A program made the translations under genes and the position numbers. Positions 14,634 to 48,115 of a stretch of DNA of 64,000 nucleotides are shown here, piece by piece. Each line of letters begins with the position of its first letter. The first letter of the stretch is position 1. The DNA is from Mytilus edulis. Lineage: Eukaryota. The stretch spans positions 61,318,001 to 61,382,000 of the forward strand of contig NC_092350.1 in NCBI RefSeq assembly GCF_963676685.1, given 5' to 3'. The notes beneath the pieces were generated by a model that ran no database searches, was not told the origin of the DNA, and saw only the letters and a program-made list of their open reading frames with translations.

Positions 14634-16313
14634 ATGGCGACATCATCTCAGAGCTGTGGTGTATGTGACCTCCGCCACCTTACCAAACCATCCATAGTCT
14701 GGTGCACAGAATGTGACGAGGGACTATGTACAGAATGCAAGGAACATCATAGCTTGTCGAAGTCATCGAGAAGCCATTACGTCATACCTTTTACTGAATA
14801 CCAGAAATTACCAGCTGATATACTTAAAATTACTCAGTACTGTACTAAACATGACAAAAAGTATCAAATGTATTGCAAGAAGCATGCATGCCCCTGCTGC
14901 AGCAAATGCATCGTCGACAGCCATAAAGAATGCCGAGATTTTGTTGAATTAGATGACGCCATTCACAATATCAAAACCTCTAATGTCATGTGCGAAATAG
15001 AGGAAACATTGGTTGAAGTAGCAGAAAATCTACAGAAAATTCGCCAGCATCAAACTGAAAATCTGACGACATTTAAAGAAAGTAGAATGGAAATAGAAAA
15101 AGAAATGAAGACGATCAGAATAAATATCAACAAACATCTCGACACACTACAAGATGATTTAATTAAACAACTATATGCGAGAGAAGAAAAAGAAAACTCG
15201 AAAATTTTGCAGTTATTGTCATCACTAGAAAAGCAAGAAAAAGAAATAGCAGAATGTCAGAGAAACTTCATGAACATCAAGCAATATGCAACAGATCTTC
15301 AAGTGTATCTTTCAATTAAAAAGATAGAGGAGGAAGTTTATATCCAAAATCAATTTCTGCTGTCGTTAAAGGAAAGCAAGAATTTCAAACAACTTCTTGT
15401 TTTCATATAAGATCAACACCTCCATCAAGAATATCATGTCCGATATCATCAGTTTTGGGGAAGTGCGTATTGAAGCTAAACCTTGCAACATTGTTCTGAT
15501 TAAGAAAAAGTCCAAACAAGCCCAAATGATGGTACCGACCGGTCAATCTAGACCCATTGAAAAAATAAACCTAACGCTACAAAAGACCTTCGACACTCAA
15601 GGAATCCAAACTAACGGATGTTGCATGCTGCCCGATGATAGATTTGCATTAACTTACTATTATGATGGTCATCTAGTTATATTTAACATGAACGGGTTAA
15701 AAGACTTTGAGGTGAAGATGTCATGGCACGTTTTTGATATAGCGTACATCAGTGAAGACAATGCAATACGAAGAAGTGTATTACTATTATCGACTTGGAA
15801 AAGAAACAAATTAAGAAAACAATTTCACTTGATTCTAATTGTTATGGTATTGCATTGAAAGAAAATCGTTTGATTTATTCCGGTAACGACAAAGGGATAC
15901 GAATGATTAATCTGCATGACGAGTCTATAAGTACAGTAGTTCGAAATAAAATGCCAAAACACTGTTGCACTGCATCATTTAGGGACAATATATATCATAC
16001 AAACAATGGAACACACACTGTTACATGTTATAATCTACAAGGTGAAATGCAATGGACATTCCAAAATAAAAGCATTCTTAAGATTCCTCTCGGTATAGAT
16101 GTAGATATTGATGGTAATGTGTACGTGGTGGGATACCAATCTAACAATGTGGTAGTTATCTCCCCTGATGGACAACGGCATAGAGAAGTGTTGACAGCAA
16201 GTGATGGTCTAAGTGAACCTGTCTCACTGCATAATAGTGGACCAAATAATCAATTGCTAGTAGCGAACTACAGAAACACAGCTCGTTTGTTCAATATCAT
16301 TCGAACAAGTTAA
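14634..16313 (+). pseudogene. TRIM-like copy 1 (B-box/coiled coil/NHL-like propeller), disrupted by a +1 frameshift near 15395 and a ~22-nt deletion near 15765
   Basis: ORFs 14580, 15397 and 15795 join into a full paralog of 46421..48115; TAG acceptor at 14621-14623 just before ATG 14634. Confidence 0.88.
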
Positions 16314-16482
16314 ACCATTGTTGTGAAATTTTTCTATTCAATAAGCATGGATTCTTTTTCAAGAACCCACTGTGCTTTAACAATGAGAGAGCCTTTGGCA
16401 AAACTCATTAAGGCTACAATAGCTCATTATCGAGTAATGTTGTCTGACGAGTATTTATCACTGAAACTTCGGACCGATAAAT

Positions 16483-16570
16483 AGACAATAATAGTGCATT
16501 GACAGAGCCTCGCATTTCCCCGTTTCTAAGCCTCATTCTTATATGTCAAGTCAATGCACTATTATTGTCT
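16483..16570. repeat. Hairpin with perfect 21-bp arms (AGACAATAATAGTGCATTGAC)
   Basis: 16483-16503 is the exact reverse complement of 16550-16570. Confidence 0.9.
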
Positions 16571-17052
16571 TTATACTGCAATCACAAAAAAAATAATTCC
16601 AATTGTTGTTTAATGTGTTAAAGTTATTATTTGATTTATATATTGGGAAACTTCCCCCTTTTATAAAAAGGCCTCACATCATGCAGGCGGAAAAATATAC
16701 AGCAAAATGAAATGTACATCTACCTGTTGAAACTAGCAATCGATGGTGAACGAATTTGTTTGAGAATGAACTAAATACCAACAATAAGCATAAAACATAA
16801 TGATTTATAGTTTGCAAACCATAAATATTAACAAGTGAAATATGGTTTTTTTTTTCAAAAAATTGCTAAAGAAATAAGTTTGAGTCGTTGTATACATTGA
16901 AAACAAGAACAGGTTGAATAATTAATTATAGTTTCGGCCATTTCTATTTAAATATTCATGAGGAAAAGTGATATTAGATCAGTGACTGTATATGACATAG
17001 AAATATACGGTCAACGCATTTTGACTGCTCAAATAGAACGAGTGCAGTATAA
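16571..17052. mobile_element. Non-autonomous DNA element with TTATACTGCA...TGCAGTATAA inverted ends
   Basis: Perfect 10-bp inverted repeat at both ends; no coding capacity. Confidence 0.55.
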
Positions 17053-17099
17053 ATCTGAAATAAGTTCAATTACAAAAATGAAAAGACACTGCATTTAAC

Positions 17100-17482
17100 T
17101 TTTATTTACGTTAACATTAACATTTATATTAATGTCTAATTCCTGGTTTCCAATACAGATTTTTTTCGACACTTCCTGTTTAAAGGCACACCTCCGCGAA
17201 TACTTCGACATGCGTCTCGTCACATTGTCTCGCTAGTTCTTTTGTACTCCCTCACAGCATCACTCCGGTGTCCAGTTACCTCTGATATAATTTGTTCATC
17301 AACACCACATTCATACAAACGGGTTGCAGCTGTTGCACGTAATGAATGGTTTGACCTAAATCCACCGAGTACTGAATCTGTGCACATTTGCCCGACTGTT
17401 GCAGCTAGGGTGTTTATACTAATTGGTTGTGCTGTGTACCAAATGTTTTCCTTTGGTTTAGATAAAGGCCTCAGATAAAAAA
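17100..17482 (-). mobile_element. Crypton/DUF3504-type tyrosine recombinase C-terminal fragment (pseudogenic)
   Basis: Minus strand reads FYLRPLSKPKENIWYTAQPISINTLAATVGQMCTDSVLGGFRSNHSLRATAATRLYECGVDEQIISEVTGHRSDAVREYKRTS, with HxLR, GH and catalytic Y motifs. Confidence 0.88.
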
Positions 17483-19670
17483 AAAAACATTAGTTTTTGT
17501 CTGTTCTAGGCTGAAATGAAAAAGTTGAATCTTTAATAAATAAATAAGGGAGTTAGGGAAACTGACATCCTGCTCAATTAAGATTAAGAATCGAACACAT
17601 GACACTTGCATGATTTTGAACGCCTCGAATAGGAAAAAAAATTATATACCAAATCAATACAGAATTACTATATTCAATGTAAGCAATGGATTCCGTAAAT
17701 ACTATTTAATATATATAAACAGTTGTCCTTCAACAAGAACATTCATGAAATGTTTGCCACTGGACGTTAAACAACCAACAATCAATCAATCAATATTGAA
17801 TTCTAAACTGAGTAAAGAAAAATTAGCAACATATATTCTAACTTAAGAAAAAATATATTAAAAATGTCCAAAATGGGGAAATAATTTGTAAACGTTCATT
17901 CTTTATTCATTTAAAAGGTTATCAGAAATAAAGATTATAAGTTATCAAATATAATTCATAGTGATTTTTTTTATAAATAACTAACATGAATTATCTTTAG
18001 TTAGTTGGTTAAGGAAGGTTTCATATATCATGTATATTATTACAGCTTATTTACTACTGCTTGTACAGTAAAACTTTGGTTGGCTTGCTTGCTTTGTTTG
18101 TATTATTGCTTATTCAAGCTTTGTAATTAAGATTGACATCTCTAAACAATATATATATGACATAGTCAAACCTGTATATATATCATATTTGAATTTAATT
18201 GAACTTGATTGTACAATAAACAAACAAAGCAAGCAACCAATTTACCAAAGTCTTCCTCTACATGCATTAGGAAATTAGCTGTAAAATGCTTTTTATATAC
18301 CAAAAACCAGACATTTATCAAATATATATAATATATGGAATTTGAAAAAAAAAAGAAAATCATGATGTATCGATTACTATGGAACTGACACATACTTACT
18401 ATAAGTACAAGGAAAAGGCAAAGAAACGACAGTTTTATAGCCGTTTTTTATATCTAAAAGTTAATAGAAACGATTTCGACATGGGGTAAAAACTCGCAAG
18501 ATGTACAACCCGATAAATGACTTAAGACATGACATTGAAGAGACACGAGACAAGGTGCCCTCGGCACTACCTCAAAGTTCAGATAAGTTACCTAATATGC
18601 CACCACATTTAACCGACATATATCAATGTTCAATCGACTCAATTCAACCTATTTCATTCCAACCAATTAGACTGAAAGCGATTCAAGAACAATAACAATA
18701 ACATGTTACATATTGATGAACATTTTTATTTTCACTATTTGTTTTTGTATATTCAGTCATATTTGCAAATGTATGCGTTCTAGAAATAACCAAACTATTC
18801 TATTTATATTTAAAAATTAATTGATAACAAGTTCAAGAACATGAAGACTATTTTTGAAGAATCATTACTTAATTTCCGAAGTTATTTAAAATTCTTTGCG
18901 GACAATCTTGATATTTATAACGTTTTTCCGCCATCTTGAAAATGGGAGCCATATTGGATTTTTCTGAGTGGGTCCATAGCTAAAATCAAAGGGTATATAA
19001 CCAAGAACTACTGTGCAAAGTTTCATGATTTCCTCATCAAGTGAGCAATTCTGCTCTATATCTGCACCAATCAGCCGGACTATTAAAGATGTATTCGATA
19101 TTTCTGAGTTAAATTCTATCTTATTAACGTTTTGAATTTTCCAAAGATTAAAAAAGTTTTATTATTTTAACTTTCGTTCTGTGCTGGGACATACCATATA
19201 TTTATCATCCGTTATATTATGTCCCAATTCTAGGGCAAAATACATTCTCCTTCATAATGCCTTTATTATCTACAAGGATTTCAATTTTACTATACCAATC
19301 CTTGGAACTATATATATATAATAACGTTCAATGATCTATTCATTAAACAGGGTCATGAATTTGTATTTAGTATATGCATCTCTGCTATCGATATACAGGT
19401 GCATATTCTCATATTTTTATCCCTGAAAACAAAAATAATAGCTTCAAATAAGGAAGTCCAATTCACAGATGTATAATCATTTAACATATCCTTTCTGATC
19501 AAATGGTATTTTAATTAGTTTAACATTATATATATAGCTACAAAATAATGCAAATAACCGTAAAGCCATGTTTAATGTGAACATATTCTACTAGTACATA
19601 AGAATTGTTTTTGTCTTTTAAGTAATAGAAAAAATAAAAATAAAAGAGTTCTAATGCATGACTATGTTAT

Positions 19671-20511
19671 AGATAATGCATATTTTAAGGTTTATCTTGT
19701 CGTAGAACACATCTAGGGGTGTCAGTAGTTATCAAAGGTACCAGGATTATAATTTAATACGCCAGACGCGCGTTTCGTCTACATAATACTCATCAGTGAC
19801 GCTCAGATCAAAATAGTTATATAGCCAAACAAGTACAAGAAGAAGTTGAAGAGCATTGAGGACACGAAATTCCAAAAAGTTGTGCCAAATACGGCTAAGG
19901 TAGTCTATTCCTGGAATAAGAAAATCCTTGTTTTTATCGAAAAAACTGAAGTTTGTCAACAGGAAATTGATAAAAATGACCATATAATTGACATTCATGT
20001 CAACACCGTAGTGCTGACTACTGGGCCGGTGATACCCTCGGGGACGAAACGTCCATCAGCAGTGGCATCGACACAGTGGTGTAAATAGTTATCAAAGGTA
20101 CCAGGATTATAATTAAATACGCCAGACGCGCGTTTCGTCTACATAGGACTCATCAGTGATGCTCAGATTAAAATGGTAATTAAGCCAAAGTACAAAAGTT
20201 GAAGAGCATTGAGGACCCGAAATTCCAAAAAGTTGTGCTAAATACGGCTAAGGTAATCTATTCGTGGGATAAGAAAATCCTTAGTTATCTCGAAAAATCT
20301 AATGTTTTGTCAACAGGAAATTTATGTTTGATATTCATGTCAACACCGCAGTGCTGACTACTGGGATCGTGATACCCTCGGTGATGAAACGTCCACCAGC
20401 AGTGGAATCGACCCAGGATTGATCAAATGAAAGACCGACCGTAGGGAGGTCTTTCATTGGGCAATCATGACACCCCGACTAAAAGTTAAAACCCTAAAAT
20501 ATGCATTATCT
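19671..20511. mobile_element. Palindromic MITE interrupted by the retrozyme
   Basis: AGATAATGCATATTTTAAGG...GGGGTGTC on the left pairs with GACACCCC...CCCTAAAATATGCATTATCT on the right; central hairpin AATGAAAGACC/GGTCTTTCATT. Confidence 0.75.
19724..20416 (-). mobile_element. Non-LTR retrozyme: about two tandem 360-bp units, each with a hammerhead (19759-19802, 20119-20162)
   Basis: Direct repeat with period 360 (CCAGGATTATAATT at 19741 and 20101); hammerhead core on the minus strand in both units. Confidence 0.88.
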
Positions 20512-22280: not shown

Positions 22281-23962
22281 ATGTCAACATCATCTCAGAG
22301 CTGTGGTTTTTGTGGCATTCGTCAAATTACCAAAGCACCTATAGTCTGGTGTACAGAATGTGACGAGGGATTATGTACAGAATCAAAGAACATCATAGCT
22401 TGTCGAAGTCATCGAGAAGTCATAGCGTTATATCTTTCACTGATTACCTGAAATTACCAGATGATATACTTAGAATTACTCAGTACTGTAGTAAACATGA
22501 TAAAAAGTATCAAATGTATTGCCAAAAACATGAATTCCCCTGCTAGGGCAAATGTATCGTGGAAAGCCATAACGGAAGCCGAGATTTCGTCGAATTATAT
22601 GACGTCATTCACAATGTCAAAACCTTCAATGCGATGTGCGAAATAGAGGAAACATTATTTGAAGTTGCAGAAGATCTACAGAAAATTCGTCAGCATCAAC
22701 AGGACAATCTGACGACATTTAAGGAAAGTAGAAAGGAAATTGAAAAAGAAATAAAGAAGACAAGAATAAAGATCAACAACCATCTTAAAAAATACAAGAG
22801 GATTTAATGAAACAGCTATATGCAGTAGAAGAAAAAGAAAACTCGAGAATTTGTCAGTTATTGTCATCAATAGAAAAGAAAGAAAAGGAAATAGCAGAAT
22901 GCCAAAGAAACATTATGAACATCAAGCAACATGCAACGGACCTGCAAGTGTTTCTTTCAATGCAAAAAAATAGAGGAGGACGTCTATAGCAATAATAAAT
23001 TGCTGCAATAGCTTGAAGAAAGCAGGAATTTTAAGCAAATTTCTCTTTCATATAAGACCAACATCTTTATCAGGAATATCATGTCCGATATCTTAACTTT
23101 TGGAGAAGTGCGTATTGAGGCTAAATCTTGCGATATTGCGATAAAAGGCGAAACAAGACAAATGATGATACCGACCGTTCAATCAAAATCCCTTGAAAAT
23201 ATAACACTAATGATACAAAAGACATTCAACACTCAAGGAAACTCAATCTACGGATGTTGCATGCTGTCGGATGGTAGATTGGCATTTACTTACTACTGGG
23301 ATTGTAAGGTAATTATATTTAACATGAACGGATTTAACGACTTTGAAGTGAAGATGCCTTGTGAAGCGTTTGATATAGTGTACATCAGTGAGGACAATAC
23401 ATTGGCTGTTACATCTGGTAGTTCCGATAAGAATTGTATTACTATTATAGACTTGGAAAAGAAACAAATCAAGAAAACCATTTCACTAGATTCCAACAGT
23501 TATGGCATTGCATTGAAAGATAACCGATTGATTTATTCCGGTTACGACAGAGGAATACGAATGATCAATCTGTACAACGAGTCTTTTAGTGACATAGTTC
23601 GGGACGAGATGCCCTGTGAATGTTACATTGCAATATTTAGGGACAATATATATCATACAAACAATAAAACAAACACTGTCACATGTTACAGACTACAAGG
23701 TGAAATACAATGGGTATTCAAAAATGAAAGAGTTCTGAGGTATCCTCGGGATATTGATGTAGATATTGATAGTAATGTGTCCGTGGTGGGCTTCGAGTCA
23801 AACAATGTGGTAGTTGTCTCCACTGATGGACAACGACATAGAGAAATACTGACAGCAAGTTATGGTCTTGATAATTCTATTTCAATTCAGTATAGTGGTC
23901 CAAAGAATCAGTTGCTAGTCGCGAATTTGAGTGACAAGGCTCATTTGTTTAATATTTATTAG
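22281..23962 (+). pseudogene. TRIM-like copy 2, multiply disrupted pseudogene
   Basis: MSTSSQSCGFC...WCTECDEGLCTE, then a -1 frameshift near 22384, in-frame TAG near 22544, frameshifts near 22790 and 22965 and a TAG near 23009; the propeller part (23081..23962) is still open. Confidence 0.92.
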
Positions 23963-24189
23963 ACAAAGTTCAGAGTTAAAACTTCTCTCCCTTTAGATCA
24001 TTCTGTACAGTGTTTATAATTACTGGATTTCGGAATCCTATTTTGTAAATATAAGCTGTTATATAATATTTAGTGTTCATTTGGAACAAAATAATGCATT
24101 CAATGAAATATAGTGTTTGGGCTAATAACAACAGTGCCTTATATGCATGAAGAGTATACTTAAGTTAATATTAATTGATATTTCTTTGT

Positions 24190-24620: not shown

Positions 24621-26380
24621 ATCTACATTTGTTGTTATAATTTAAGGAAATGTATATTACTTTTGACCTTAATTATTTATCCCTTATAAATTTTATTAAC
24701 TATGAATTTGCATTCAGGTATTATCAAAGATCAAATTTATTCGTTGACATACACATTCATACGTAAGTACGAATTGATATTAAAACTTGATGTTGTATTT
24801 CAAGGGAATGCATGCCCAACATTTTATAACTATTTAGTTACAAAAATATACAAGAACATGACGAAGATTAGAGAATAAAGGGGTGTTAAAAATATAAAGA
24901 ATAGGAAATAATGGGCAACAAAGATAAAACCATGAGAAAAAGTTCTAAATATGAAGGAAGTACACCACTAAGCCATGGCCCCATTGCTTTCTATGTTAAA
25001 TTCCTCAATTTCTAGCAAACACAGTTCTTTTGTTTTAAGTTCAAATAAAGTAACAATCATTGCATGTCAAAGCAACACTTTATGGTGTCTCGTACTGAAA
25101 AAAATCAACATACCTAATAATAATGGCATATAAGAAAGAACTGGTTCCCGGAACTTCGGATGTACCAAAACAGGTACTTCAGATCTGACAAACAGGAAAA
25201 ATGTACCATCTTTATAAAATTTGGTGCGGTTATTTTAATATTCAAAATTATAAGTCAAAAACTGTTCTACAATGATCACCAGTCATTCAGCTTTCATTTG
25301 ATACAAACAATACCTAAATATTCTACATATTTTTAAAGTTACACTCATGCGTGGGAACTATTTTGTGTTAAATATGTACAACTTTCGTATGTGCTTTCTG
25401 GCCAGGCCGAATTAGTGGTGTTACACATAAAGAACAAAGAAATAAACTACAACTTATTCAGACCCCATGTATGACAAAAACAGCCACTAACGTGATTCTT
25501 AACATAAAAAAGTCGAAGTTATTCATATATATATCAACCTTTAAATGTAGCCTAATGGAATAAACAATACGTACATGTAAACATAAAATCAGTACAGTCA
25601 TTAGAAAAGGACGTATATCGATGATAACGGCCGTATAAAACAACATGTAATAGATATCAACAGCTCACGTTAAAATAATACAGTAATACACTATATGGTA
25701 TCAAAGAATGATCACAGAAGCCTGTTAAAACAAACGTTAAAATATTTTCAAATTTTCATGATTAAAACTCCTATAAGCAGTCACCTGACTATTCCAGTTA
25801 TTGACTTGAAATTTTATACAGCAAATAATCAACTGTCATTTTAGACTTTGGCTCTTCCTTTTTTGTTTAAATAATATATAAACTTTCTTGGCCTTAAATT
25901 TGTCTTGTAAGTTATGTTTTCTTCTTGTCACTAATTAAAGACCGGACTTGTTTGTAGATCTTGTCTAGCTGATAATTTTCATACTTAAAATTTCTTTCTG
26001 TCTACTAGTTTTGAAGATGATAGCAAACAATAACAACTGCGAAATTTGCTTAGAATTGAAATATTCAGAGGCAATAACCACCAAATGAGTTGCCATATTT
26101 CTTTGAAACTTTCAATGTCAATGTATCTTGTCTCGCTAATAATTTCACCTGGTTATTTGACTGGTTAAGATTTTGAGATACAAGGCAAACCTAGCACGTG
26201 GTTTTCACCGGAAAACGTTTGGTTTGTTGTATCCAGAAATAATGAAATAGACGAAAACATGTATGAAAAAGCAAAGTCGAAGAAATTTAAAAATATGCAG
26301 AATGATTACGTTTATTTTTAATACACCCATATCTGACATGTAGATTAAATTTAAACATTCAGGCATTTATCAGTTTCTAA

Positions 26381-26453
26381 ATCAGTCACTTTATTGATAA
26401 CCTTCTTGATAAATCAGGTGGTCGGGAATGAATATTGAATATTGCAAGGTAAT
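26381..26453 (+). promoter_or_regulatory. Putative first exon module of TRIM-like copy 3
   Basis: ATCAGTCAC...GATAAATCAGG...CAAG|GTAAT, homologous to 12641-12712. Confidence 0.5.
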
Positions 26454-27074: not shown

Positions 27075-29720
27075 AGGGAACCTCTGACATGTGACTGTTC
27101 CCACTCGCCTTACAAGTACAGCCCCTCTGGTCATGTTATTACTGGGAATCTAAACATAATTCAACATGAAAATCCCCGAAAGGTGATTTCTCGTGGTCCC
27201 AAGTTTAGAGAACCCCAACACATCAATTGGAACCATAACTTCAAAATAATTATAGATTCCATTGAGGACTACGCCAGGTCATGGGCTAAACGAGAAGAAG
27301 TTCAACTGGACACTTTGTCACAATGGGTCAAAACAATCAGGTCTCTGATAAAACGTCGCATTCATAAGTTGAAATACTGTGTAAATGATCGACCTGGGTC
27401 CATTTTCAGTGGCAGAGAGGCTGTAAAATGTCTATCATCTCTTCAAGATAAGTATGTTGTTGTTCCTGCGGACAAAGCTTCAAATAATATTGTCTTTATA
27501 TGTAAATCGTATTACTACGATTAGGAATAAATGAGCACTCAGGTAATCCTACATACAAAAGCATATCATTTGACAAGGATGAGATTTCGGCGAATCATAA
27601 GTCCTTCATAGCTTCTATGAACATTGCATTGAACAACAAATCGGAGGACTTACCTTGTTTGTATTGGATACCTAAACTTCACAAAATTCCGTACAAACAA
27701 CGGTACATTGCCGGCTCATCTGCATGTTCTACTAAAGAATTGTCCATTAGATTGACTAAAATTCTGTCCGCAGTTAAAGAGGGTCTTCAGATATACTGTG
27801 AAACTGTTTACTCGCGTAGTGGTATTAACCATATGTGGATTCTTAAAAACTCTAAAGAACTTCTGGATAATTTTAAATCTCGGTCTTTTTCTGAAATTAG
27901 TTCTATCAAAACTTTTGATTTTTTAACCTTGTATACAACCATTCCCCATGTGAAATTGAAAAACCGTCTAAAAGAAATAATCCACAATGCTTTTCATCAT
28001 AAAAATGGTAGCATACGCTATAAATTTATCACTTTGGATACCATAAGGCATATTTTGTTAATAAGGAACAAAAGGGTAAAATATACTACACAGAGGAACA
28101 AGTGATCAGTATGCTGGAGTTTCTTATTGACAACATATTTGTTGAATTTGGAGGTAGACTTTTTCAACAAATTGTCGGCATTCCTATAGAAACGAACTAT
28201 GCGCCTCTCCTTGTCGACCTCTTCTTATTTTCATATGAATCAGAGTTCCTTCAGACACTTGTCAAAAACAAGAAGATCAAAGAAGCCTGGTTATTTAATT
28301 TCACTTTCAGATATATTGATGATGTTCTTTCCATTAACAATCCGAACTTTTCTGATTGGGTTCCATTAATATACCCACCAGAACTAGAAATTAAAGAGAC
28401 AACAGACACGGCTTCCTCCGCCTCAATTTTAGACTTTTACCTCGAATTTGACATACACAGTCATCTCAGTACCAGAATTTATGAAAAACGAGACGATTTT
28501 AATTTTGAAATTATCAATTTTCCCCACCTTAGTAGTAATATACCAACTTCACCTGCATATGGAATATACATTGTCACGTAAAGTAGCTATAACAAAAAAA
28601 ACCAGACTTAACAGTAAAAGTAATAATAATAAATAAAATAATTGTGCGGTTCAAAGTATGACGGGATACATAAGTACAGAGTCATGTCAAATGTATATCA
28701 TAAAAAAACAGACTTAACAGAAAAAGTAGTATTAATGAATAAAATAGTTTTGTCATTCAAAGTATGACAAGATCCGTAAGTAAAAGTTATATTAATAAAT
28801 GAAATAATTTTGTCGTTCAAAGTATGATGTTTTACATAAGCACAGACTCACATCAAATGAATATCTCAAAAAACTGACTTAACAGTAAAAGTAATATTAA
28901 TAAAGACAAATAAAAGAATACTATAACACGTAATTAAGAAGATAACCAACGTCAGTACGCAAAATCTATACTTCAAGACCATCTTGTATTATTTGTGAAG
29001 TTGATACGGAATATTTATCAACAAGTTCTTGGTAGCTTCCGATGAACTTTTTTTTAGAAAAAGGATGAGACGTTCTTTGACATACCCCTGGTTCATCAAC
29101 TTTCTGTTCAGACACTGGTGACGTTTTACAAAGTCTGAATAGGAGCTGAAAGGTCTTGAATACCGAATAAGTTGGCTCTGCATTTATGTATGCCGTCATA
29201 CTTTGAACGACAAAATTATTTTATGTCTTCCTGTGCGAATTTCAAACGCGCAATTTTACACCAGTAATGAAAACCTTCCATCCTTTATTGGTAGACTTTA
29301 AATAGATAAAGAAAATCGTATAAGATAGGCAAAATGAGAATGTTAAATTTCATGTATGCCTTTTTGTGCTTCTTCGTTACATTTGTTGTTTTATAGTGAT
29401 TACGATGATAACATAATGTTGACTGCTGTACCCCTATTTTTGACATTTTCACTCTTTGAGTATGTTTGTTTTGATCACACATCGTTGACAATGTAATGGA
29501 ATTTGATGCGACTGTCATATAAGTGAGAGGTTTAGCTAGCTATAAAACCAGGTTCAATCCACCATTTTCTACATTAGAAAATGCCTGTACCAAGTCAGGA
29601 ATATGACAGTTGTTATCCATTCGTTTGATGTGTTTGGACTTTTGATTTTGCCTTTTGAGTTTGGACTTTCCTTTTTGAATTTTCCTCGGAGTTCAGTATT
29701 TTTGTGTTTTTAATTTTTAT
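27075..29720 (+). mobile_element. Penelope-like retroelement (frameshifted RT) with an internally inverted segment, in the 5' intron of TRIM copy 3
   Basis: VPADKASNN, LYWIPKLHK, TFDFLTLYTTIPH, QIVGIPI...APLLVDLFL and RYIDDVL motifs; the C-terminus SQLIRYSR...DGLEV is on the minus strand at 29183-28966. Confidence 0.92.
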
Positions 29721-30214: not shown

Positions 30215-31912
30215 ATGGCGACGTCATTTCAAAACTGTGGTGTATGTGAACTCCGTCACATCACAAATCCATCCATTGTCTGGTGTACAGAATGTGACGA
30301 GGGACTATGTACAGAATGCCAGGAACATCATAGTTTATCTAAGGCATCTAGGAGGCATAGTGTGATACCGATTACCGGTTACCAGAAATTACCAACTAAT
30401 CTTCTGAAAGTTACTCAGTACTGTAGCAAACACAATGAAAAGTATCAAATTTATTGCCAGATGCATGAAAGTCCCTGCTGCAGCAAGTGTATTGTTGAGG
30501 ACCATAAAGATTGCCAGGATATCGTCAATTTAGATGACGTCATTCATAATGTCAAAACCTCCAATGCCCTACTCGAGATAGAGGACACATTAGTTGAAGC
30601 AGCAGAAAATATACAGAAAATTCGCCAGCACCAACAGAACAATCTGTCGACTTTATATGAAAAGAGAAAGGAAATTGAAAATGAAATAAAGAATATTAGA
30701 ATAAAGATCAACAGTCATCTCGATAAACTACAAGAAGATTTATTGAAACAACTCTATTCGATCGAAGAAAAAGAAAACTTGAAAATTTGTCAGTTATTGT
30801 CAAAATTAGAAAACAAAGAAAAAGAAATAAAAGAATACCAAAGAAATATTATGAACATCAAGCAACAAGCAACAGACCTTCAAGTGTTTCTTTCCATGAA
30901 GCAAATAAAAGAAGGCGTATATAGCAAAGGTATATTTCTGCACTCGATTATAGAAGGCGAGGAGGGACATTGTTTTTCATATGAGATCAACCCCTCTATC
31001 CAGAATATCATGTCCGATATCGAAAGTTTCGGAGAGGTGAATATTGAAGCTAAACCTTGCGATATAGTTCTGACCAAAAAAAAGGCCAAACAAGCCCAAG
31101 TGATGGTACCACAATTAACCGTTCAATCAAGATCCATTAGAAATATAAAGCTAACGATACACAAGATCATTAACACTAAAGAAAATGTCTTCAGCTGTTG
31201 CATACTACCTGATGATAGAACGGTGTTTACTTTCTTCATTGAATCGACAGTAAAGGTATTCAACAATAAAGGATTAAAAGGCTTTAAGGTGAAGATGCCG
31301 TGTGAACCTTTTGATATAGTGTACATCAGTCAGGATAATACATTGGCTGTTACATCTGGAGGTTCAGCGAAAAATTGTATTACCATTATAGACTTGGCGA
31401 GAAAAAAAATCAGGAAGATAATTACACTGGATTCGCATAATTATGGAATAGCACTGAAAGATAATCGATTGATTTATTCCGGTTACGACAAAGGTATATG
31501 CATGATCAATATGTACGACGAGTCAACGCGTGACATACATGACATAGTTAAAGATGCAATGCCAAGTGAAAGTTACATTGCAACATTAAGGGACAATATA
31601 TATTATACTAACAACGTCACAAACGTTGTAACGTGCTGTAATCTAAAAGGTGAAATACAATGGACATTCCAAAATGAAAGCGTTCTGAAGAGTCCTCGGG
31701 GTATAGATGTAGATAGTGATGGTAATGTGTACGTGGTAGGGATATTGTCAAACAATGTTGTAGTTATCTCCCCTGACGGACAACTACATAGTGAAATATT
31801 GACAGCAGCAGATGGTCTAAATAGACCTTCCTCGCTTCATTATAGTGAACCAAGGAACCAGTTGCTAGTTGCAGGCTACAATGACAAGGCTCATTTGTTT
31901 GATTTTATTTGA
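30215..31912 (+). CDS. TRIM-like copy 3, intact RING-less B-box1/B-box2/coiled-coil/NHL-like beta-propeller protein (565 aa)
   Basis: CxxC...WCTECDEGLCTECQEHH (B-box 1), C.KH...YC..H..PCC..C...H (B-box 2), E/K/Q-rich heptads, and PRGIDVDSDGNVYVV...NNVVVISPDG NHL-type blades; acceptor TAAG at 30201-30204. Confidence 0.93.
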   Translation: MATSFQNCGVCELRHITNPSIVWCTECDEGLCTECQEHHSLSKASRRHSVIPITGYQKLPTNLLKVTQYCSKHNEKYQIYCQMHESPCCSKCIVEDHKDCQDIVNLDDVIHNVKTSNALLEIEDTLVEAAENIQKIRQHQQNNLSTLYEKRKEIENEIKNIRIKINSHLDKLQEDLLKQLYSIEEKENLKICQLLSKLENKEKEIKEYQRNIMNIKQQATDLQVFLSMKQIKEGVYSKGIFLHSIIEGEEGHCFSYEINPSIQNIMSDIESFGEVNIEAKPCDIVLTKKKAKQAQVMVPQLTVQSRSIRNIKLTIHKIINTKENVFSCCILPDDRTVFTFFIESTVKVFNNKGLKGFKVKMPCEPFDIVYISQDNTLAVTSGGSAKNCITIIDLARKKIRKIITLDSHNYGIALKDNRLIYSGYDKGICMINMYDESTRDIHDIVKDAMPSESYIATLRDNIYYTNNVTNVVTCCNLKGEIQWTFQNESVLKSPRGIDVDSDGNVYVVGILSNNVVVISPDGQLHSEILTAADGLNRPSSLHYSEPRNQLLVAGYNDKAHLFDFI

Positions 31913-39189: not shown

Positions 39190-40830
39190 AAAAGCTATGT
39201 GAGGAAAATGTTTAAGACATTAACAAGGAAATAGAACTTATTCGCCAGGGAGAAAAAGGCTCGTCGAGTTAACAAAAAAGGACAGCAAAGTTTATCCTCG
39301 CTATCGAGCTAAAATAAAGCAGCTTCAAAATTATAAAAGTGACGTTGAAACCCTTGCAAAAAAATTCCCAAATTGTATACAGAGGGACTGTAACGTGTTT
39401 ATTCCACTCAGCAGACAAAAATGTCTTAACAAACTGTACTGCTGCCTACGAAAACGCTTTAGAAAAACACGAAAAAATGAAAAGTTCGACTTGACTACCG
39501 ACATTCGAAGACGCTTTGGAGACTCTTTCGAAAAAACTGTCTTTTCCGAAATGAAGCGGAAATACTTTCGGAAATATTTCCGAAAGTTGGGAATTGAAAC
39601 GGAAAATTTGACACCAGCATTAATGGCGACGGATAAGAAACACCGTGCAAAGACCATCAAAATCGTTATTTATGATCGCATTTTTGCTTTTAAGCATATG
39701 TTAGGAGTCCCACTATTGAGCCGAATAAACGAAGTTCAAGAAATCATAAGACCTCGTTCATCACTGTCATTGCTTACACGCAGTCTCAGACTTTCAACAA
39801 ATATTCTCAGAAAGACTTAGCTTCTAAAAGTCTTGAAGTTAACAGGCATCCACTTAATACAATAATCGAGTATTTTGTAAACAGGAAATTAACTCCGTAC
39901 GAAAGTTGTGCCGAATCCGCGGAGGATTCCGACCCTTGTTCGCAGAACGAAACTTCAATGACGAAAAGCTTTAGTCGCTCTTTGTCTGCTCAAGACTACA
40001 GTAATGGTAAACAAAAAGTTTCAAAAGAAAAATTCAACGATGATCACTGTACGCGTAGTAAACAAATTCAGCCAGAATGTCCTTTTGGTCCTGTTTCTAT
40101 TATAAAAAACAAACCATTTCCAACATTCGTCGGCAAAATTGAGCCAAAGTGTCCTGCTCAATCAGAACCTTTTGCCAGGAACAATAGTTTTACGCAGAAG
40201 GAATCATCCAAGTTAGACAGTTCTTGTAATACAGCAGTTGTTGCAGTTGATATTGATTCCCTACAAAACCAACAAAACAAACCAATAATCCATATACCTC
40301 AAGCCGAATCAACCATATTGGAAAATCCCTGTTCGCTGACCTCATACACTGACAACACTAGCAGTCTTATTAAACGACCAACCCGGAATCTCATAGAAAT
40401 TCCTTGTCGATCGACGTCTATTGAAATTGACACTACTTTTGCAAGTCAAAAACGAACCAAGCCAGAATTTCTGAGTCTCTCGACGCATGAAATTGACAAT
40501 TCAATACAATTGAAAAATGCTGACCACAAGATGTCTGACGATCATTGCCTTGTTGAAAACTCAACCAATTATGAGACCTCAGCTACATTGGACTCTTGTC
40601 TTATAACCGATTAGGGAAAACTTAAAGATCGGAAATCTGCTGTTATTGTAATTTCTGAAAATCCTACTGAGCAAATGAAACCGGAAGGTAAATGTCATCT
40701 GCTTTTTCCACGTGGTCCTCCGCTACATAGAATATCGTCGACTCCCAGTCAGAAAAGCACAGAAGAAATTCATTGTAAGATTGAAGGTCATGCAATAACG
40801 AAAAGGCCACAATCAGGTCAGGAAGCCAAA
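39190..40830 (+). other. Decayed or orphan coding-like region (basic N-terminal part, Ser/Thr/Pro-rich C-terminal part), function unknown
   Basis: Higher GC than the flanks and adjacent same-strand ORFs of 141 aa (39395..39820) and 218 aa (39958..40614); no motif recognised. Confidence 0.4.
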
Positions 40831-40916
40831 TGATTATTTTCTGTTTTTGTTGGTTGTTGATCAAGGTGATGTTGTTAACTTTTAAATAAGGTATTGTTAT
40901 TTGCAGTGTGCGTGAA

Positions 40917-41330
40917 ATGGCGACAGCTATTGAGACCTGTGGTGTTTTTGAGCTCCGTCATATCACTAAACCAACCGTATTCTGGTGTTCTGGATGTGAT
41001 GAGAGACTATGTACAGAATGTCAGGAGCATCACAGTTTGTCAAAAGGAACCAAAAACTATAAAGTGATACCAATTACTGAATACACAAAATTACCAGCTG
41101 CTGTACTTATGATTTGTCAAAACTGTACTAAACATGATAAAAGGTATAAAATGTATTGCCAGAAGCATGCATTTCCGTGTTGCAGCAAATGTATCGTGGA
41201 CAGCCACAAAGAATGCCTAGATTTAGTCGAACTAGATGACGTCATTCACAATGTCAAAACCTGTATTACCATGTGCGAGATAGAGGAAACAAAGGAATAT
41301 CTATACGACGAGTCTATACGTGACATAGAC
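40917..41330 (+). pseudogene. TRIM-like copy 4, truncated: B-boxes, a large internal deletion, then a LINE insertion
   Basis: B-box sequence with a lost ligand (CGVF for CGVC); EIEET is joined directly to the propeller fragment LYDESIRDI; LINE sequence follows immediately. Confidence 0.9.
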
Positions 41331-42772
41331 ATTTAACAATAATTGGTAAAATAACAGTTATCAAATCATTGATTATACTAAATTTTACCTTTTTAACATC
41401 CGTTTCACATATTGAAAAAGAATATATTGTTAAATTTAAAAAAAATGATCTATAACTTTTTATGGAAAAGCAAAAGAGAAAAGGTTAAACGCACAGTACT
41501 TAGCTTTGGTGAACTAGATGGGAGTTTAAAAATGATTAACATACATAAATACATAGAATCTATCAGAATTGGTTGGATCAAAAGGTTAATTAATTGAGAT
41601 CTAAAACAATTGGAAAGTTAATCCACTTTGGAAAAGATTTCCTTATCTTTCACATGAATATTGATAACACTGACTCTATTCAAAAGTTAAAAGAGATGCC
41701 AAAATTGTATTTCAACATTGTAAAAGCATGGATAGTTAATAAAAATGTACAACAGCCAAAAAACTTCAGATCTATACGTCAAGAAGTTATTTGGGGAAAT
41801 CATTTCATAAAGATAAAATAATAAATGCCTTTTATTTGAAAACTGGATAAAAAGTAATAGTATCTTTGTTTATGACATCATTGAAGAAAATGGTCATATA
41901 GAAGAAAATTTCAATTTACAAAACCTGAAAATAAAAGTAACTGGATGTCAGAATTTTACCAATTAAAGAAAGCTTTTCCAGGAGAATGGTTAAAGATTTT
42001 AAAACAGGAAAATTCAAAGAAAACTAAAGTAAAAACGTCATATGCAATTCATATTAATAATAATTGTAATAAAAAAGAAAACTTAGAAAAAGAAGATACC
42101 AGAAAAATTTATAATATATTAATTAAGAGTGAAATTGAAATACCTGTTGGTTTTTACAAATGGAAGACAATGCCTAACCTTGAATACATTAAGAGTCTTT
42201 AATGTAATATGTTAAAGTTTGTTCATCATTTTTTAAACGATAATAAATACAAAGTGTTCCGTTGGAAATTGCTACACTTTATTTTACCTTGTAAAGTTTT
42301 ATTGAAAAAGTGGAAGATGTGCGATATTTCAAATTGTCACTATTGCAACACCACAGAGGATTATGATCACATGTTTCTTAAATGTCACTTTCTTGATAAT
42401 TTCTGGAGTAAAGTAAAAAAAAACTCATAGAAAAACTGAATATTAATAATAATATTCTAACATTAAAAAATTTAGTATGGGGTTATAAATAAATGATGAG
42501 CAATACTATGAAATTAATTACTTGATTACAATTATAATGATTTGTATATATAAGGCAAATTATATGTCTGAACAGAAAACAAAATCTTTAGATGTATATT
42601 CTGTATTTAAAGCAGAATTCATGTACAACTACACAATGTAGGCAACTAGTAAACACACTACGAATAAATGTCTACTTGATAAAGTTGTCAAATTGTTGTA
42701 ATAATTTTTATGTTTGCAAATGTATAATCTAGCAAAAAAAGAAAAAAAAAAGGTTAATAATAAAAAAAAAAT
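41326..42772 (+). mobile_element. 5'-truncated Tx1/L1-clade LINE with an A-rich tail
   Basis: RHLTIIGKITVIKSL, IYNFLWKSKREKVKR...DG.LKMI, IWGNHFI, FRWKLLHFILP, CHYC...EDYDHMFLKC...FW (CCHC zf-RVT); poly-A at 42734-42771. Confidence 0.92.
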
Positions 42773-43857
42773 CTAGATCCGTATCTGATTTAGAGAAATA
42801 ATTTTACCTATCACCGATAAGCGTGGAGATAACGGTATTTGTTATCCACTGTTTTTTATCGTTAAAAAAAGGAAAAAAATATTTACATACTAATTTTTTT
42901 CAGAATCGAAAAAACCTATATTATAATATATGTTCATACATACCTCTGAATTGCTTATATTAATCATAAATCACTATTAAAACTGGTATTTTCCAAACCA
43001 GGAAGAGATATCAATCCAATAATAGAAAATCGATAACGGCAAGTGTGAATTATTTCCGGAAACTTTTTTCCAAACAAGCTAGATATACATATTGATATGA
43101 TAAATTAAAATTTCATATATACTTATTTATTTACGGTTGAAAATGAAATATTTATAATATAGTTTAGTTAAATTGTAATGTATTATTGTTAAACAGAGAG
43201 AAATCCTGGATTTCTTGTTAAAATAAAGATAACTTCACTAGAATGCTGGATGTTAACAGCAAGCAATATATTGTTGAATTAAAAAAAAACATATTCAGCC
43301 GCAATTTAACATAGGTATTGATTTTATAATTTTTTTACAGGGTGTGTCGTAAGTGCCGTGTGGAGACAGTAGAGTGCCTCCCCGTGCTTCATGTTTATGC
43401 TCTTATAATATTCTAGCTAAGGGATTGTGTGTCCGAGCGAGAACTTCCCTAGTTCATTACTTTAGGAATGTTCATCAAAAAGTAATATTTTTCCTACGGG
43501 TCTCGAGGCCAATACAGCAAACCTTGAATCTATACCAGTGCCAATACAGAAACAGCCAGTTGATAAAACTACGATACGGCCTTGATCTTATTATCTTTTA
43601 TGTTTTTATCTCATAAATGATACATAAAAACTAAAGATATTGTATGTATAACTTAAATTACATATGCATGTAAACACCTGACTGTATCTTTTTGATACTG
43701 TTTTCAATTTGAAACCTTCTAATTAAATATAGAAATTATTTAGAAAAAAACAGTTGTATTCCCAAATGGCAAAGTTGACACTAAAATTTCTATTTTTCTA
43801 TTTTTAAGTTTTTAGCCACGCCATTCTGTTTCTCATTGATACTTTAAATTGTACACA

Positions 43858-45430
43858 ATACCCTTCTATAGACTAGATTTCACTAAACAATCTATAAAAA
43901 CAGGTGAAAATTGATATAAAATGGCAACAACTACTATAACGAGTCGACAAATGATATCTGTCGTGTTGACTTACCTCAATGTCTGTGGGTTTTTAATGAT
44001 CACGTTCCTGCTTATAGTTTCTTTCTCAATTTTTGACAGTCTCGCTATTCTGTAGTTCATAGATCTTTTATGATTTCTAGGGAATTTGTATTACCTTAAC
44101 TTTAGTGACGTTAAAATTGTGTTCTTGTTCCTTAAGTTTTCTTCTTTTCGCTAATTCGTGAGACCACATATTTTCATAGATCTTGTATACATGTTCATTT
44201 TTACTTCCTAAATTTTCATGGGCTTTTTACTTGTTTTCAAGATGATGGCAAGAATACTGCAAAATTTGCAAAGAATCAAACGTTCAAGTATAATAAGCCC
44301 CAAATGGATTGTCCAATTTATCTTAAATTTCACGTAGAATGTATCATAATCTGGTGAACATTTTCACCCTGTTATTAAACTTTTTTTTAGGATATTAATC
44401 AAAAACTTGCGGTTGTTTTCACAAGGAAAATTTCTGGTTGGTTGTGTACTGACATAGGAAAAATTCGTAGAAAAAAATTAAAAAAGAAATAGTTTTAGAA
44501 ATGTTCAACATAATAAGTGTATTGTTAATACGCCCCTATCGAACTTGTTAGTGTGTAGATAACATCCCGACATGTATCACTTAATAAATCAGTCACGTTT
44601 TGTGATAAACCAGGAGGGCGGATATGAATATTTAACATTAAAAGGTAATCTTTTATGATTTATTCGATATTTCTGAGTTGAATGCTTTCTAATTATCGTT
44701 TTGAATTTTCAAAAGATAATCATGACCTAAATACGAACCATTTGTAATAGTTTTATAATTTTTATTTTCGTTCTGGGGTCGGGGCATTTTTATCTTCAAT
44801 TATGTTATGTCCTAGTTCTAGGACATGTCCCATACCCTTCTATAGATTGGTTTTCACTAATCAATCTATAAAAAACAGGTTAAAATTGATAAAAAATGGC
44901 AACAACTACTATAACGAGTCGACAAATGATATCTGTCATGTTAACGTACCTCAATGTCTGTTGGTTTTTTTAATGATAACGTTCCTGCTTATAGTTTCTT
45001 TCTCGATTTTTGACAGCCTCGCTATTCTGTAATTCATAGATCTTTTATGATTTCTGGGGAACTTGTATTACATAAACTTTAGTGACGCTAAAATTGTGAA
45101 ATAGATTTAAAAATGTTCAACATAATAAGTTTATTGTTAATACGCCCCTATCGAAATTGTTAGTGTGTAGATAACATCCCGACATGTATCAGTTAATAAA
45201 TCAGTCATAATTTTCTGATAAACCAGGAGGGCGGAAATGAATATTTAACATTAAAAGGTAATCTTTTAGGATTTTTTCGATATTTCTGAGTTGAATTCTT
45301 TCTAATTATCGTTTTGAATTTTAAAAAGATAATCATGACCTAAATACGAACCATTTGTAATAGTTTTATAATATTTACTTTCGTTCTGGGGTCGGGGCAT
45401 TTTTATCTTCAGTTATGTTATGTCCCAGTT
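43858..45430 (+). repeat. Tandem duplication of the promoter/first-exon region of TRIM-like copy 5
   Basis: 43858-44825 is repeated at 44830-45430; the second unit lacks about 370 bp (junction near 45099); both keep the AAAAG|GTAATC donor (44645, 45258). Confidence 0.85.
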
Positions 45431-45508
45431 CTAGGTCAAAATATACTTTTCTTCATTATGCCTTTATTGTCAAAATGGTTATGTATAGTATTAACTTATC
45501 TTAGGACA

Positions 45509-45570
45509 TGTTATCAAAGGTACCAGGATTATAATTGAGTACGCCAGACACGCATTTCGTCTACATAAGA
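45509..45570 (-). mobile_element. Short retrozyme fragment, truncated inside the hammerhead
   Basis: GTTATCAAAGGTACCAGGATTATAATT...ACGCCAGACACGCATTTCGTCTACATAAGA. Confidence 0.75.
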
Positions 45571-46420
45571 AATTATCAAAAAAAAAAACGCTCACGGGTT
45601 TATATATTATACAGGTTCAAGAAGCGAAACTGTTTTTGGTATATGTATCTCTGCTATCATTATACAGGATATATGTTCTCATATTTTGTCACTAGAACAC
45701 AAACAGAAATGAAATGATTAGATAATTTATGTATGTGTCTACTTTACCCTGATATTTTTTTTCTACCATTCTAAATATGGTTGTACTGTTGTATGTGATT
45801 AATTGTTGTGTTGTCCAACGTTTATCACTATATTTATTTGACCAACTGCTAAACAAGATAAAAAAATTACATTATCCAAATCAGATCGTCAATGGAAATA
45901 ACTGGCTTATATCAGTCCAAAATAAAAATGTGTGTAACCCATTAAGAAAATAGCTCTGTTTCAAACACACTTTCGCTGTATTTGAGACCCTAAACGATTA
46001 ACTTTTCCCTTAAAGCAAATTTTCACTAAATTTCTTGAGATACATGTATATCCACTATCATGTATACAAAATTAAATGCCATATTGTATCATTTCACACG
46101 GGACGCTTTATAGCTGCAATAATTCATATTTCATTTCATTTTCATTTCATTTCAGACGATTGAATAACTTAAGAATGAGATAAATCAGAATAGTTCCGAT
46201 TTTGAAATATATATATAGAATTGAATTGATTACTGTTATTAAACGCTACTGTCAGTATAAATTGCTATATTTTGAAACCTGCATTTAATTTATGTAGATA
46301 CCGAAGCACCTTGACGGGAAACTAAATTAGGCTACCATGATGTTCGATGTTGGGGTTAAAATTGCGTTGTTTTTGTTTTAAATTTGTAAATCAGCTATTG
46401 TTAATTGTAGTTTGTGTTAA

Positions 46421-48115
46421 ATGGCAACTTCATCTCTGAGCTGTGGTGTTTGTAACCTCCGTCACGTTAACAAACCACCGATAGTATGGTGTACAGAATG
46501 TGACGAGGGACTATGTACAGAATGCAAGGAACATCATTGTTTGTCTAAGGCATCCAGGAGCCATTGTGTGGTGCCATTTACTGAATACATGAAATTACCA
46601 GCTAATGTACTTTCAATTTCTAAGGATTGTACTAAACACAATAAAAAGTATCAAATGTATTGCCAGAAGCATGAATTTCCCTGCTGTAGCAAATGTATCT
46701 TGGAAAGCCATAACGAATGCCGAGATTTCGTCGATTTAGATCAGGTCATTCAAAATGTCAAAACATCCAATGCCATGTGCGAGCTAGAGGAAACTTTAGT
46801 TGAAGTAGCAGAAAATCTAGAGAAAATTCGCCAGGATCAACAAGAAAATCTGGCGATATTTAAAGAAAGTAGAAAGGAAATAGAAAAAGAAATAAAGAAG
46901 ACCAGAATAAAGATCAACAACCATCTTGACAAGCTACAAGAGGATTTAATGAAAAAACTCTATGCGGAAGAAGAAAAAGAAAACTCCAAAATTTGTCAGT
47001 TATTGTCATCATTGGAAAAGAAGGAAAAAGAAATAGAAGAATACCAGAGAAACATTGTGAACATAAAGCAACATGCAACGGATCTTCAAGTATTTCTTTC
47101 AATGAAAAAAATAGAGGAGGACGTAAACAGCAAAAACAAATTCCTGAAGTCACTTGTGGAAGGCAAGAATTTCAATCAAATATCTCTCTCATATGAAATA
47201 AATACCTCTATCAAGAAAATCTTGTCCGATATCAGAAGTTTTGGAGAAGTGCGTATCGAAACTAAATCTGGCGAAATTGTTTTGATTAGGAAAAAGGTCA
47301 AACAAGCCCAAACGATGGTACCAACCGTTCAATCAAGATACACAATTGAAAATATAGTGTTAATGAAACAAAAGACCATCAATATTCCAGAAAACCAAAT
47401 CCATGGATGTTGCATATTGCCGGATGGTAGAATGGCATTTACTTTATACACGGAGTGTAAGGTAATTGTGTTTAATTTGAAAGGGTTAAAAGATTTTGAA
47501 GTCAAATTGTCGTGTTACGCGTTTGATATAGTGTATAACAGTGAGGATAACACATTGGCCGTCTCATCTGGTGGTTCATTTCAGCAGTATATTACCATTA
47601 TAGACTTGGCGAAGAAACGAATCAAGAAAACAATTTCACTAGATTCCACCAGTTATGGCATTGCATTGAAAGATAATCGATTGATTTATTCCGCTAGAGA
47701 CAAAGGAATACGAATGATGAATCTGAATGAAGAGTCTATAAGTACAATAGTCCGGGACATCTTACCCCATGACTGTCACACTGCATCATTTAGGGACAAC
47801 ATATATCATACAAACAGAGAAACAAGCACTGTGACATGTTATAATCTACAAGGTAAAATACAATGGACATTCTTAAATCAAAGCGTTCTGGAGAATATTC
47901 AAGGTATAGATGTAGATAGTGATGGTAATGTGTACGTTGTGGGGAGCGTATCGAACAATGTTGTAGTTATCTCCCCTGATGGGCAACGACATAGAGAAGT
48001 ATTGACAGCAAGTGATGGTCTCATGATTCCTGTCTCACTACATTATAGTGGACAAAACAATCAGTTGCTAGTCGCAAACTTCTCTAACACGGCTTATACG
48101 TTTGATGTTATTTAA
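46421..48115 (+). CDS. TRIM-like copy 5, intact RING-less B-box/coiled-coil/NHL-like propeller protein (564 aa)
   Basis: Uninterrupted ORF with the same domain motifs as copy 3; acceptor TGTAG at 46406-46410. Confidence 0.93.
   Translation: MATSSLSCGVCNLRHVNKPPIVWCTECDEGLCTECKEHHCLSKASRSHCVVPFTEYMKLPANVLSISKDCTKHNKKYQMYCQKHEFPCCSKCILESHNECRDFVDLDQVIQNVKTSNAMCELEETLVEVAENLEKIRQDQQENLAIFKESRKEIEKEIKKTRIKINNHLDKLQEDLMKKLYAEEEKENSKICQLLSSLEKKEKEIEEYQRNIVNIKQHATDLQVFLSMKKIEEDVNSKNKFLKSLVEGKNFNQISLSYEINTSIKKILSDIRSFGEVRIETKSGEIVLIRKKVKQAQTMVPTVQSRYTIENIVLMKQKTINIPENQIHGCCILPDGRMAFTLYTECKVIVFNLKGLKDFEVKLSCYAFDIVYNSEDNTLAVSSGGSFQQYITIIDLAKKRIKKTISLDSTSYGIALKDNRLIYSARDKGIRMMNLNEESISTIVRDILPHDCHTASFRDNIYHTNRETSTVTCYNLQGKIQWTFLNQSVLENIQGIDVDSDGNVYVVGSVSNNVVVISPDGQRHREVLTASDGLMIPVSLHYSGQNNQLLVANFSNTAYTFDVI

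Follow-up and report, generated by a model that had tools for sequence, protein, structure and literature searches.

In canonical TRIM proteins (RING, B-box, coiled coil; RBCC) the coiled coils form antiparallel dimers and the B-boxes add avidity, and the part of this layout that is missing in Brat and Wech is the RING. To our knowledge, bivalves have no adaptive immunity. Several TRIM systems have been described that bear on the locus analysed here; the papers are cited by their PMC identifiers. According to Marin, Brat and Wech are TRIM-like genes missing part of the RBCC (PMC3503706). The finTRIM, btr and trim35-like arrays of fish and the primate TRIM5alpha are lineage-specific multigene TRIMs with selected C-terminal loops and recombination between copies (PMC3137616). 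Human TRIM56 is antiviral through both E3-independent and E3-dependent actions (PMC11768893), and in oysters TRIM genes differ in expression between resistant or tolerant families (PMC6971885, PMC9892467). The present analysis concerns a stretch of 64,000 nucleotides of the mussel Mytilus edulis (contig NC_092350.1, positions 61,318,001 to 61,382,000; hereafter the window), which carries a tandem array of B-box genes ending in a predicted beta-propeller. We consider it fairly probable that these genes belong to a RING-less, TRIM-like family with a positively selected propeller top face, a likely germline repertoire of cytosolic binders.

The array covers positions 14634-48115 of the window and is composed of five tandem paralogues, all on the plus strand, as the initial annotation had proposed and as six-frame translation and tblastn bear out; the 24 loop strings that it quoted were all found at the copies it named. 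Only copy 3 (30215..31912, 565 aa; translation, tblastn and Pfam) and copy 5 (46421..48115, 564 aa; translation and tblastn) are intact single-exon open reading frames (ORFs), with an overall identity of 65%. Copy 1 (14634..16313; tblastn, pairwise alignment) and copy 2 (22281..23962; tblastn, alignment) are full-length pseudogenes, and copy 4 (40917..41336) is a truncated fragment with the B-boxes plus the initial coil residues, its homology ending at 41291. In the assembly sequence, copy 1 is frameshifted around codons 254-256 and has lost 11 bases twice around codons 379-384 (blade 2), and copy 2 carries an in-frame stop at 22544 as well as five frameshifts. Because two of the four quoted copies are pseudogenes, the window alone cannot show selection, and genome-wide paralogues were needed for the test.

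In its intact form the gene has the layout B-box1, B-box2, coiled coil and NHL-like propeller. Pfam PF00643 (B-box) scores above cut-off in copies 1, 3 and 5, and copies 1 and 3 each show two such stretches; in copy 5 both B-boxes lie in residues 8-100 (46442..46720; PF00643 and invariant columns), and the zinc-ligand Cys and His residues are invariant across 129 aligned sequences. The AlphaFold2 model of copy 5, built from the same 129-sequence alignment, has a mean predicted local distance difference test score (pLDDT) of 85.7, above 89 in the propeller, and a predicted template modelling score of 0.50. Its long helices at residues 117-247 (46769..47161; DSSP) are a predicted coiled coil made of helices 117-218 and 221-247, with pLDDT mostly 80-93, and residues 314-563 (47360..48109; AlphaFold2, Foldseek and VIA) form a predicted propeller of six blades with four strands each. 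In Foldseek and VIA searches the top-scoring structures are NHL domains, those of TRIM3, TRIM2, Thin, LIN-41/TRIM71, NHL-2, Mei-P26 and Brat, at 10-16% identity, with VIA Z scores of 32.3 for TRIM3 NHL (rmsd 2.1 A, 245 aligned), 32.2 for TRIM2, 31.6 for Thin and 29.5 for Brat. The proposal of an NHL-type propeller is supported by the model. The designed Pizza6 and the bacterial PknD score nearly as high (Z 29-30.5), so that the fold alone cannot settle descent, and as the Pfam NHL repeat does not reach the cut-off (in copy 3 it scores 17.3 bits, with 20 required) we use the label "NHL-like". A C-terminal B30.2 (PRY-SPRY) domain is absent by Pfam, AlphaFold2 and Foldseek, and the propeller stands in its place.

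The top face of such a propeller is built by the b-c and d-a loops (PMC4015489). Faces were assigned from the strand order in the secondary structure of the model, which places 63 positions in top loops, 46 in bottom loops and 141 in strands. All six loops that had been pointed out as variable map to top DA or BC loops of the predicted structure, on one face. Among 24 near paralogues, the mean pairwise identity is 0.73 in the B-boxes, 0.67 in the coil, 0.69 in the strands and 0.64 in the bottom loops, and falls to 0.53 in the top DA loops and 0.32 in the top BC loops, a contrast between loop and scaffold that exceeds chance. Between copies 3 and 5 the top loops are 45% identical (28/62). The scaffold is not the "constant" one of the initial annotation: it is 67-70% identical between these two copies, and its ratio of nonsynonymous to synonymous rates (omega) of about 0.3 is that of ordinary purifying selection.

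Selection was analysed in 70 loci, of which 30 were the best genome matches and 40 were picked for long open frames; 61 passed the intact-ORF filter, and the nine dropped were eight broken loci and an intact one (L008) that missed the start pattern. They were divided without overlap into a near set of 24 genes, made up of copy 5 and paralogues that share 61-74% identity with it, and a far set of 37 genes (42-53% identical to copy 5). We used our own Goldman-Yang-type site models on a fixed IQ-TREE M0 tree, with scale and kappa on a grid and naive empirical Bayes posteriors. Twice the log-likelihood difference (2dL) between M8 and M8a was 106.7 in the near set, with omega 2.65 at 4.8% of sites, and 88.5 in the far set, with omega 1.92 at 4.4% of sites. 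With a posterior above 0.9, the near set yields 19 selected sites (15 in top loops, Q494 at the start of a strand A, Q545 at the bottom and two outside the propeller) and the far set 20 (19 in top loops and V538). Bottom-loop positions are selected in 1/46 and 0/46 cases, respectively (Fisher p 0.002 and 1e-5 against top loops). Twelve sites are common to both sets (p 6e-6 even when the comparison is limited to the 63 top positions); in copy 5 numbering these are 326, 344, 346, 366, 385, 387, 410, 426, 509, 535, 536 and 554. The expected excess of nonsynonymous change in the top loops is thus present in two disjoint gene sets and is not scattered evenly over the protein.

Other views of the same data agree with this picture. 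As a class, omega in the near set is 0.31 in the B-boxes, 0.32 in the coil, 0.35 in the strands, 0.40 in the bottom loops, 0.73 in the DA loops and 1.39 in the BC loops (confidence interval 1.24-1.60; beta/alpha 1.28); across sets the bottom loops have omega 0.26-0.40. When run on their own trees, residues 1-313 gave a 2dL of 1.1 and the propeller 103, while three propeller segments gave 68, 8 and 33; a reduction to 16 genes, one per tight cluster, still gave 78. Simulated nulls reached at most 4.2 in ten plain runs and at most 7.5 in 12 runs with a different tree per segment, as recombination would produce. Pair tests used 11 disjoint close pairs from the 26 pairs with a proportion of synonymous differences (pS) below 0.16. 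At sites chosen in the other set, the proportion of nonsynonymous differences (pN) was 0.195 against a local pS of 0.104 (p 0.001), and 0.244 against 0.115 in the second such comparison (p 1e-5).

As for composition, aromatic residues (Y/F/W) make up 0.14 of the selected sites, 0.08 of the other top-loop positions and 0.01 of the bottom loops; protein-binding surfaces are often rich in aromatics. The net charge of the top loops, by residue count in the 61 genes, has a mean of -1.3 and a range of -10 to +6 (copy 5 -6, copy 3 -4), being zero or negative in 47/61 genes and +3 or more in only four. A face that is selected and not consistently basic argues against a shared Brat-like RNA platform, and the RNA-binding face of the Brat/TRIM71 type that had been suggested finds no support in this crude residue count.

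Sequence exchange between copies, overlooked in the initial annotation, occurs at the scale of domains. The pair L012/L016 differs at 3/178 synonymous positions in the N-terminal half vs 35/157 in the propeller (p 8e-10), and the pair L051/L057 has the reverse pattern (46/186 vs 8/167; p 9e-8); over the 11 close pairs, pS is 0.058 in the N-terminal half vs 0.095 in the propeller. This contrast between the halves points to gene conversion or unequal crossover, which would homogenise the stalks and swap the heads. A young array at C1:66.69-66.90 Mb (L009, L012, L014, L016 and L025) has near-identical N-terminal halves (pS 0.02-0.05), top-loop pN of 0.16-0.20 and patchy propeller divergence, and is the clearest case of homogenised stalks with diversified heads.

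The window holds only a small part of the family. When the genome was searched for the copy-5 propeller, 1459 first-look candidates came up, of which 142 were scored, and the family has at least 143 genome matches. Among the matches listed, a stop-free frame of at least 550 aa is present in 85/143, the array on the plus strand at 61.27-61.48 Mb has 15 copies (copy 4 included), of which seven are intact, and another on the minus strand at 60.0-60.97 Mb has 13 copies, six of them intact. Copy 3 is 98% identical to a protein of M. galloprovincialis (P0020) and 97% identical to a twin, L021 (C7:61.479 Mb), 130 kb downstream, whereas the closest homologue of copy 5 is at most 75% identical among the 120 homologues listed. 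Copy 3/L021 and some other close pairs could be recent duplicates or uncollapsed haplotypes. Named homologues, among the matches listed, are Mytilus proteins throughout, and for several genome paralogues there is a protein labelled M. edulis with 100% identity. Because the arrays mix intact with broken copies, and copy 3 has a 98% match when copy 5 has none above 75%, the family evolves by birth-and-death, and the earlier description of the array in these terms is borne out by tandem duplication, decayed copies and the uneven closeness of homologues. In the available literature, PMC8382680 has a table that includes a B-box orthogroup with an expansion in bivalves, and the portions seen of PMC9334734 and PMC5549309 give domain counts only. 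The main texts of two studies of presence-absence variation in mussels (PMC7653742, PMC10514466) leave B-box, NHL, propeller and TRIM genes unmentioned, and their supplements may list the family; in the open-licence literature we found no paper that describes this family or selection on its propeller.

That the genes lack a RING, another point of the initial annotation, is supported by the window scan, an in-frame stop, a putative short, non-coding first exon and the Pfam results of homologues. No RING pattern was found in the six frames of the window and no RING by Pfam in 120 homologues (120 of 278, among matches listed); of the 150 RING matches scored in the genome (150 of 391 candidates), two are on this chromosome, both more than 40 Mb away. 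Copy 5 has an in-frame TAA directly before its ATG and a splice acceptor AG at 46409-46410, where its RNA coverage begins; depth is zero over 45900-46403 (80% likeness, four runs). A hidden upstream RING exon was considered for this copy and is ruled out by the stop and by the start of RNA at the acceptor. Across the family, only 11/61 genes carry a stop in the stretch from the nearest AG to the ATG, but the length of this stretch falls in all three phases (40/13/8 across the 61 genes), which would not be so at a conserved coding junction.

Five reads of a paralogue have a loose short 5' end that matches, with 4 mismatches in 24, a block ending at 45257. On this basis a putative promoter for copy 5, with a putative first exon that is short and non-coding, is placed at 45098..45257 (loose read ends, motif match and alignment); the block ends in an AAG/GT donor, and its ATG hits a stop after three codons. 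Direct searches for the first-exon motif derived from the paralogue had no match in the window or the genome, and the block was located by a mismatch scan. Candidate first-exon blocks with a donor also precede copy 3 (26285..26448, 71% match to the copy-5 block) and copy 1 (12542..12707, 80%); the region upstream of copy 2 has none. There are two extra blocks: an orphan lies upstream of copy 1 (10378-10499), and copy 5 has a tandemly duplicated block upstream (44486-44644). We infer that a short non-coding first exon is spliced to a single coding exon.

The same genome has RING-bearing, intronless sister genes, which the initial annotation had overlooked. Intronless RING ORFs of 630-700 aa are numerous elsewhere in the genome. 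Twenty of the 150 scored matches (L071-L090) were sampled because their open frame is 640-680 aa long, and all 20 are collinear with the window genes behind the RING, at 21-25% identity. They are tandem genes of 630-670 aa with the layout RING, B1, B2, coil and NHL-like propeller on C6, C10, C12 and C13; on C10, a RING-less cluster is no more than about 150 kb away from L083 and L090. Against these sisters the 61 RING-less genes group as a single clade (FastTree support 0.83, midpoint root), but having been sampled by likeness to copy 5 they provide weak evidence for one loss of the RING. Automatic "E3 ligase" names are wrong for the RING-less subfamily.

Regarding expression, which had been expected of copies 3 and 5, low-level RNA can be assigned to copy 5, while for copy 3 the RNA comes from it or from its 97% identical twin. 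Contigs match copy 5 over 343 bases with no differences (X1, presumed RNA) and over 384 bases with eight (X2, RNA on record); those of copy 3 or its twin, 98-99% alike, cover 549 bases with seven differences and 222 with two. In the same RNA runs intergenic bins such as 39324-40651 and 43972-45299 have zero depth.

Several explanations compete with a repertoire of parasite or virus binders. In the best surviving of these, which we still regard as unlikely, the ligands are self or conspecific (as in allorecognition or reproductive conflict, or where selfish elements of the germline or transmissible cancer cells are the target), or the proteins are non-immune, interchangeable substrate adaptors of host ubiquitin ligases. 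Positive selection leaves its driver unnamed, and the collinear RING-bearing sisters could provide the ligase. The large size and fast birth-and-death of the family nevertheless fit immune families best, such as finTRIM and btr (PMC3137616), and the association of oyster "TRIM" transcripts with disease resistance or tolerance (PMC6971885, PMC9892467) counts in the same direction. The sequences start at the B-box with no obvious signal peptide when read by eye, which argues against roles on the gamete surface.

A second and slightly less probable explanation is relaxed constraint, by which the top loops drift in redundant duplicates and omega above one arises from rate variation together with gene conversion. 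Several results weigh against our preferred reading. A null with no selection and whole-site rates varying from 0.6 to 1.5 times gave 2dL values of 6-51 in ten runs, so that the size of the likelihood-ratio test is inflated. A grid model with free synonymous rates (dS) keeps 13 near-set sites (11 in top loops) and none in the far set; as a class the top loops have omega near one (0.94 near, 0.81 far), and their dS is about 1.2 times the average. Pair tests against pS at the same sites are weaker (p 0.31 and 0.011; all top loops p 0.11), sites 385-388 adjoin indels, and 58/143 of the listed matches have no long stop-free frame. In the 20 sampled RING-bearing sisters, a very diverged sample with low power, 2dL is 1.9, with loop omega of 0.38 at the top vs 0.21 at the bottom. 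RNA depths are low (3-11), and one raw-read run is below one over copies 3 and 5. Against drift, the bottom loops, presumably about equally exposed, remain under constraint, the same 12 sites recur in disjoint sets, BC-loop omega exceeds one, the cross-validated pairs have pN about twice local pS, 13 near-set sites hold with free dS, and recombination nulls reach at most 7.5. We conclude that positive selection at about a dozen near-set sites is well supported, and that selection in the far set is supported mainly through the recurrence of sites and the pair test.

Least probable of all is a set of diversified, sequence-specific RNA binders of the Brat, LIN-41 or TRIM56 kind chasing viral or transposon RNAs: the best structural matches are TRIM-NHL proteins, several of which bind RNA, Brat does so by the same face (PMC4015489) and K/R make up 0.17 of the selected sites, which also hold aromatics, but known RNA-binding TRIM-NHLs have electropositive tops or patches (PMC4015489), at odds with the mostly non-positive top-loop charge found here by residue count, which is not an electrostatic surface.

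If the genes are indeed a repertoire of cytosolic binders, their ligands would be fast-evolving, probably proteinaceous, molecules of parasites or viruses, and an arms race with these would drive the change of the top face. Exchange of segments uncouples head from stalk. By analogy with TRIM biology, the coiled coil may form an antiparallel dimer presenting two heads, with avidity added by the B-boxes. The output is the least certain step: without a RING the proteins could act by steric block or scaffolding, as in the E3-independent activities of TRIM56, or alternatively could borrow ligase function from the RING-bearing sister proteins of the same genome. A wider proposal, which is doubtful at present, is a germline, intracellular, "antibody-like" system in mussels and probably other molluscs, with hundreds of RING-less NHL heads, a selected and recombining paratope, and coils that pair with each other or with RING sisters. 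Were it true, recognition and ubiquitin-ligase output would be divided between two subfamilies, as in sensor and helper NLRs. In two separate gene sets the adaptive signal falls on about a dozen positions of a single propeller face, with the remainder of the protein conserved, suggesting that an NHL-like propeller, known as a conserved binder of RNA or protein, can serve as the B30.2 does in TRIM5 and the finTRIMs. Oyster "TRIM-like" transcripts recur with disease resistance. The selection map offers a specific and testable guide to the putative binding face.

The remaining features of the window are of other kinds. Two paralogous multi-exon genes for trypsin-like serine proteases, on the minus strand at 180-3840 and 54431-63702, flank the array and share 66-93% DNA identity in blocks. 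A frameshifted reverse-transcriptase-like remnant lies at 27075-28578 on the plus strand, within the putative first intron of copy 3, with a related piece at 7007-7654; it has no match in Pfam, and by its motifs we take it to be Penelope-like. A short ORF on the minus strand (6031-6375) presumably corresponds, by motif, to the C-terminal end of a LINE (long interspersed nuclear element) reverse transcriptase. Just upstream of copy 4, on the plus strand, are two overlapping ORFs, 39224-39817 (198 aa) and 39694-40611 (306 aa). The first has a sub-threshold match to HEPN_RiboL-PSP (E 0.006) and no usable match in the ESM Atlas, and RNA depth is zero over 39324-40651.

Compared with known systems, the mussel genes share the B-boxes and the predicted coiled coil of canonical TRIM (RBCC) proteins, without the N-terminal RING. 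By their predicted layout, which is that of Brat, they are TRIM-like in Marin's sense (PMC3503706). The TRIM-NHL proteins (Marin's subfamily C: TRIM2, TRIM3, TRIM32/Thin, TRIM71/LIN-41, TRIM56 and Mei-P26, with the TRIM-like Brat and Wech) are alike in having two B-boxes, a coiled coil and a six-bladed propeller. They are, however, few and conserved genes with a conserved binding face, whereas the mussel family has more than 140 paralogues with intronless coding sequences, whose top face is positively selected and for the most part not basic; a filamin domain is absent, and identity to those proteins is just 10-16%. Human TRIM56 resembles the mussel genes in its B1-B2-coil-NHL-like layout and differs in that it is encoded by one gene, has a RING as well as a disordered linker, and binds RNA; it fits the RING-bearing mussel sisters better than the genes of the window. 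Most of the ESM Atlas clusters of proteins that combine B-box and NHL are from molluscs. The bivalve papers on B-box or "TRIM2/3-like" genes, in the portions available, deal with RING E3 ligases or leave the architecture unstated, and contain no map of selection on a propeller. The finTRIM and btr arrays and TRIM5alpha are RBCC-B30.2 proteins, in contrast to the NHL-like head, two B-boxes and missing RING of the mussel genes. Common to both are copies that recombine and a C-terminal domain whose loops are under positive selection. By analogy, the mussel family appears to work like the finTRIM and btr arrays, yet it is not a member of them.

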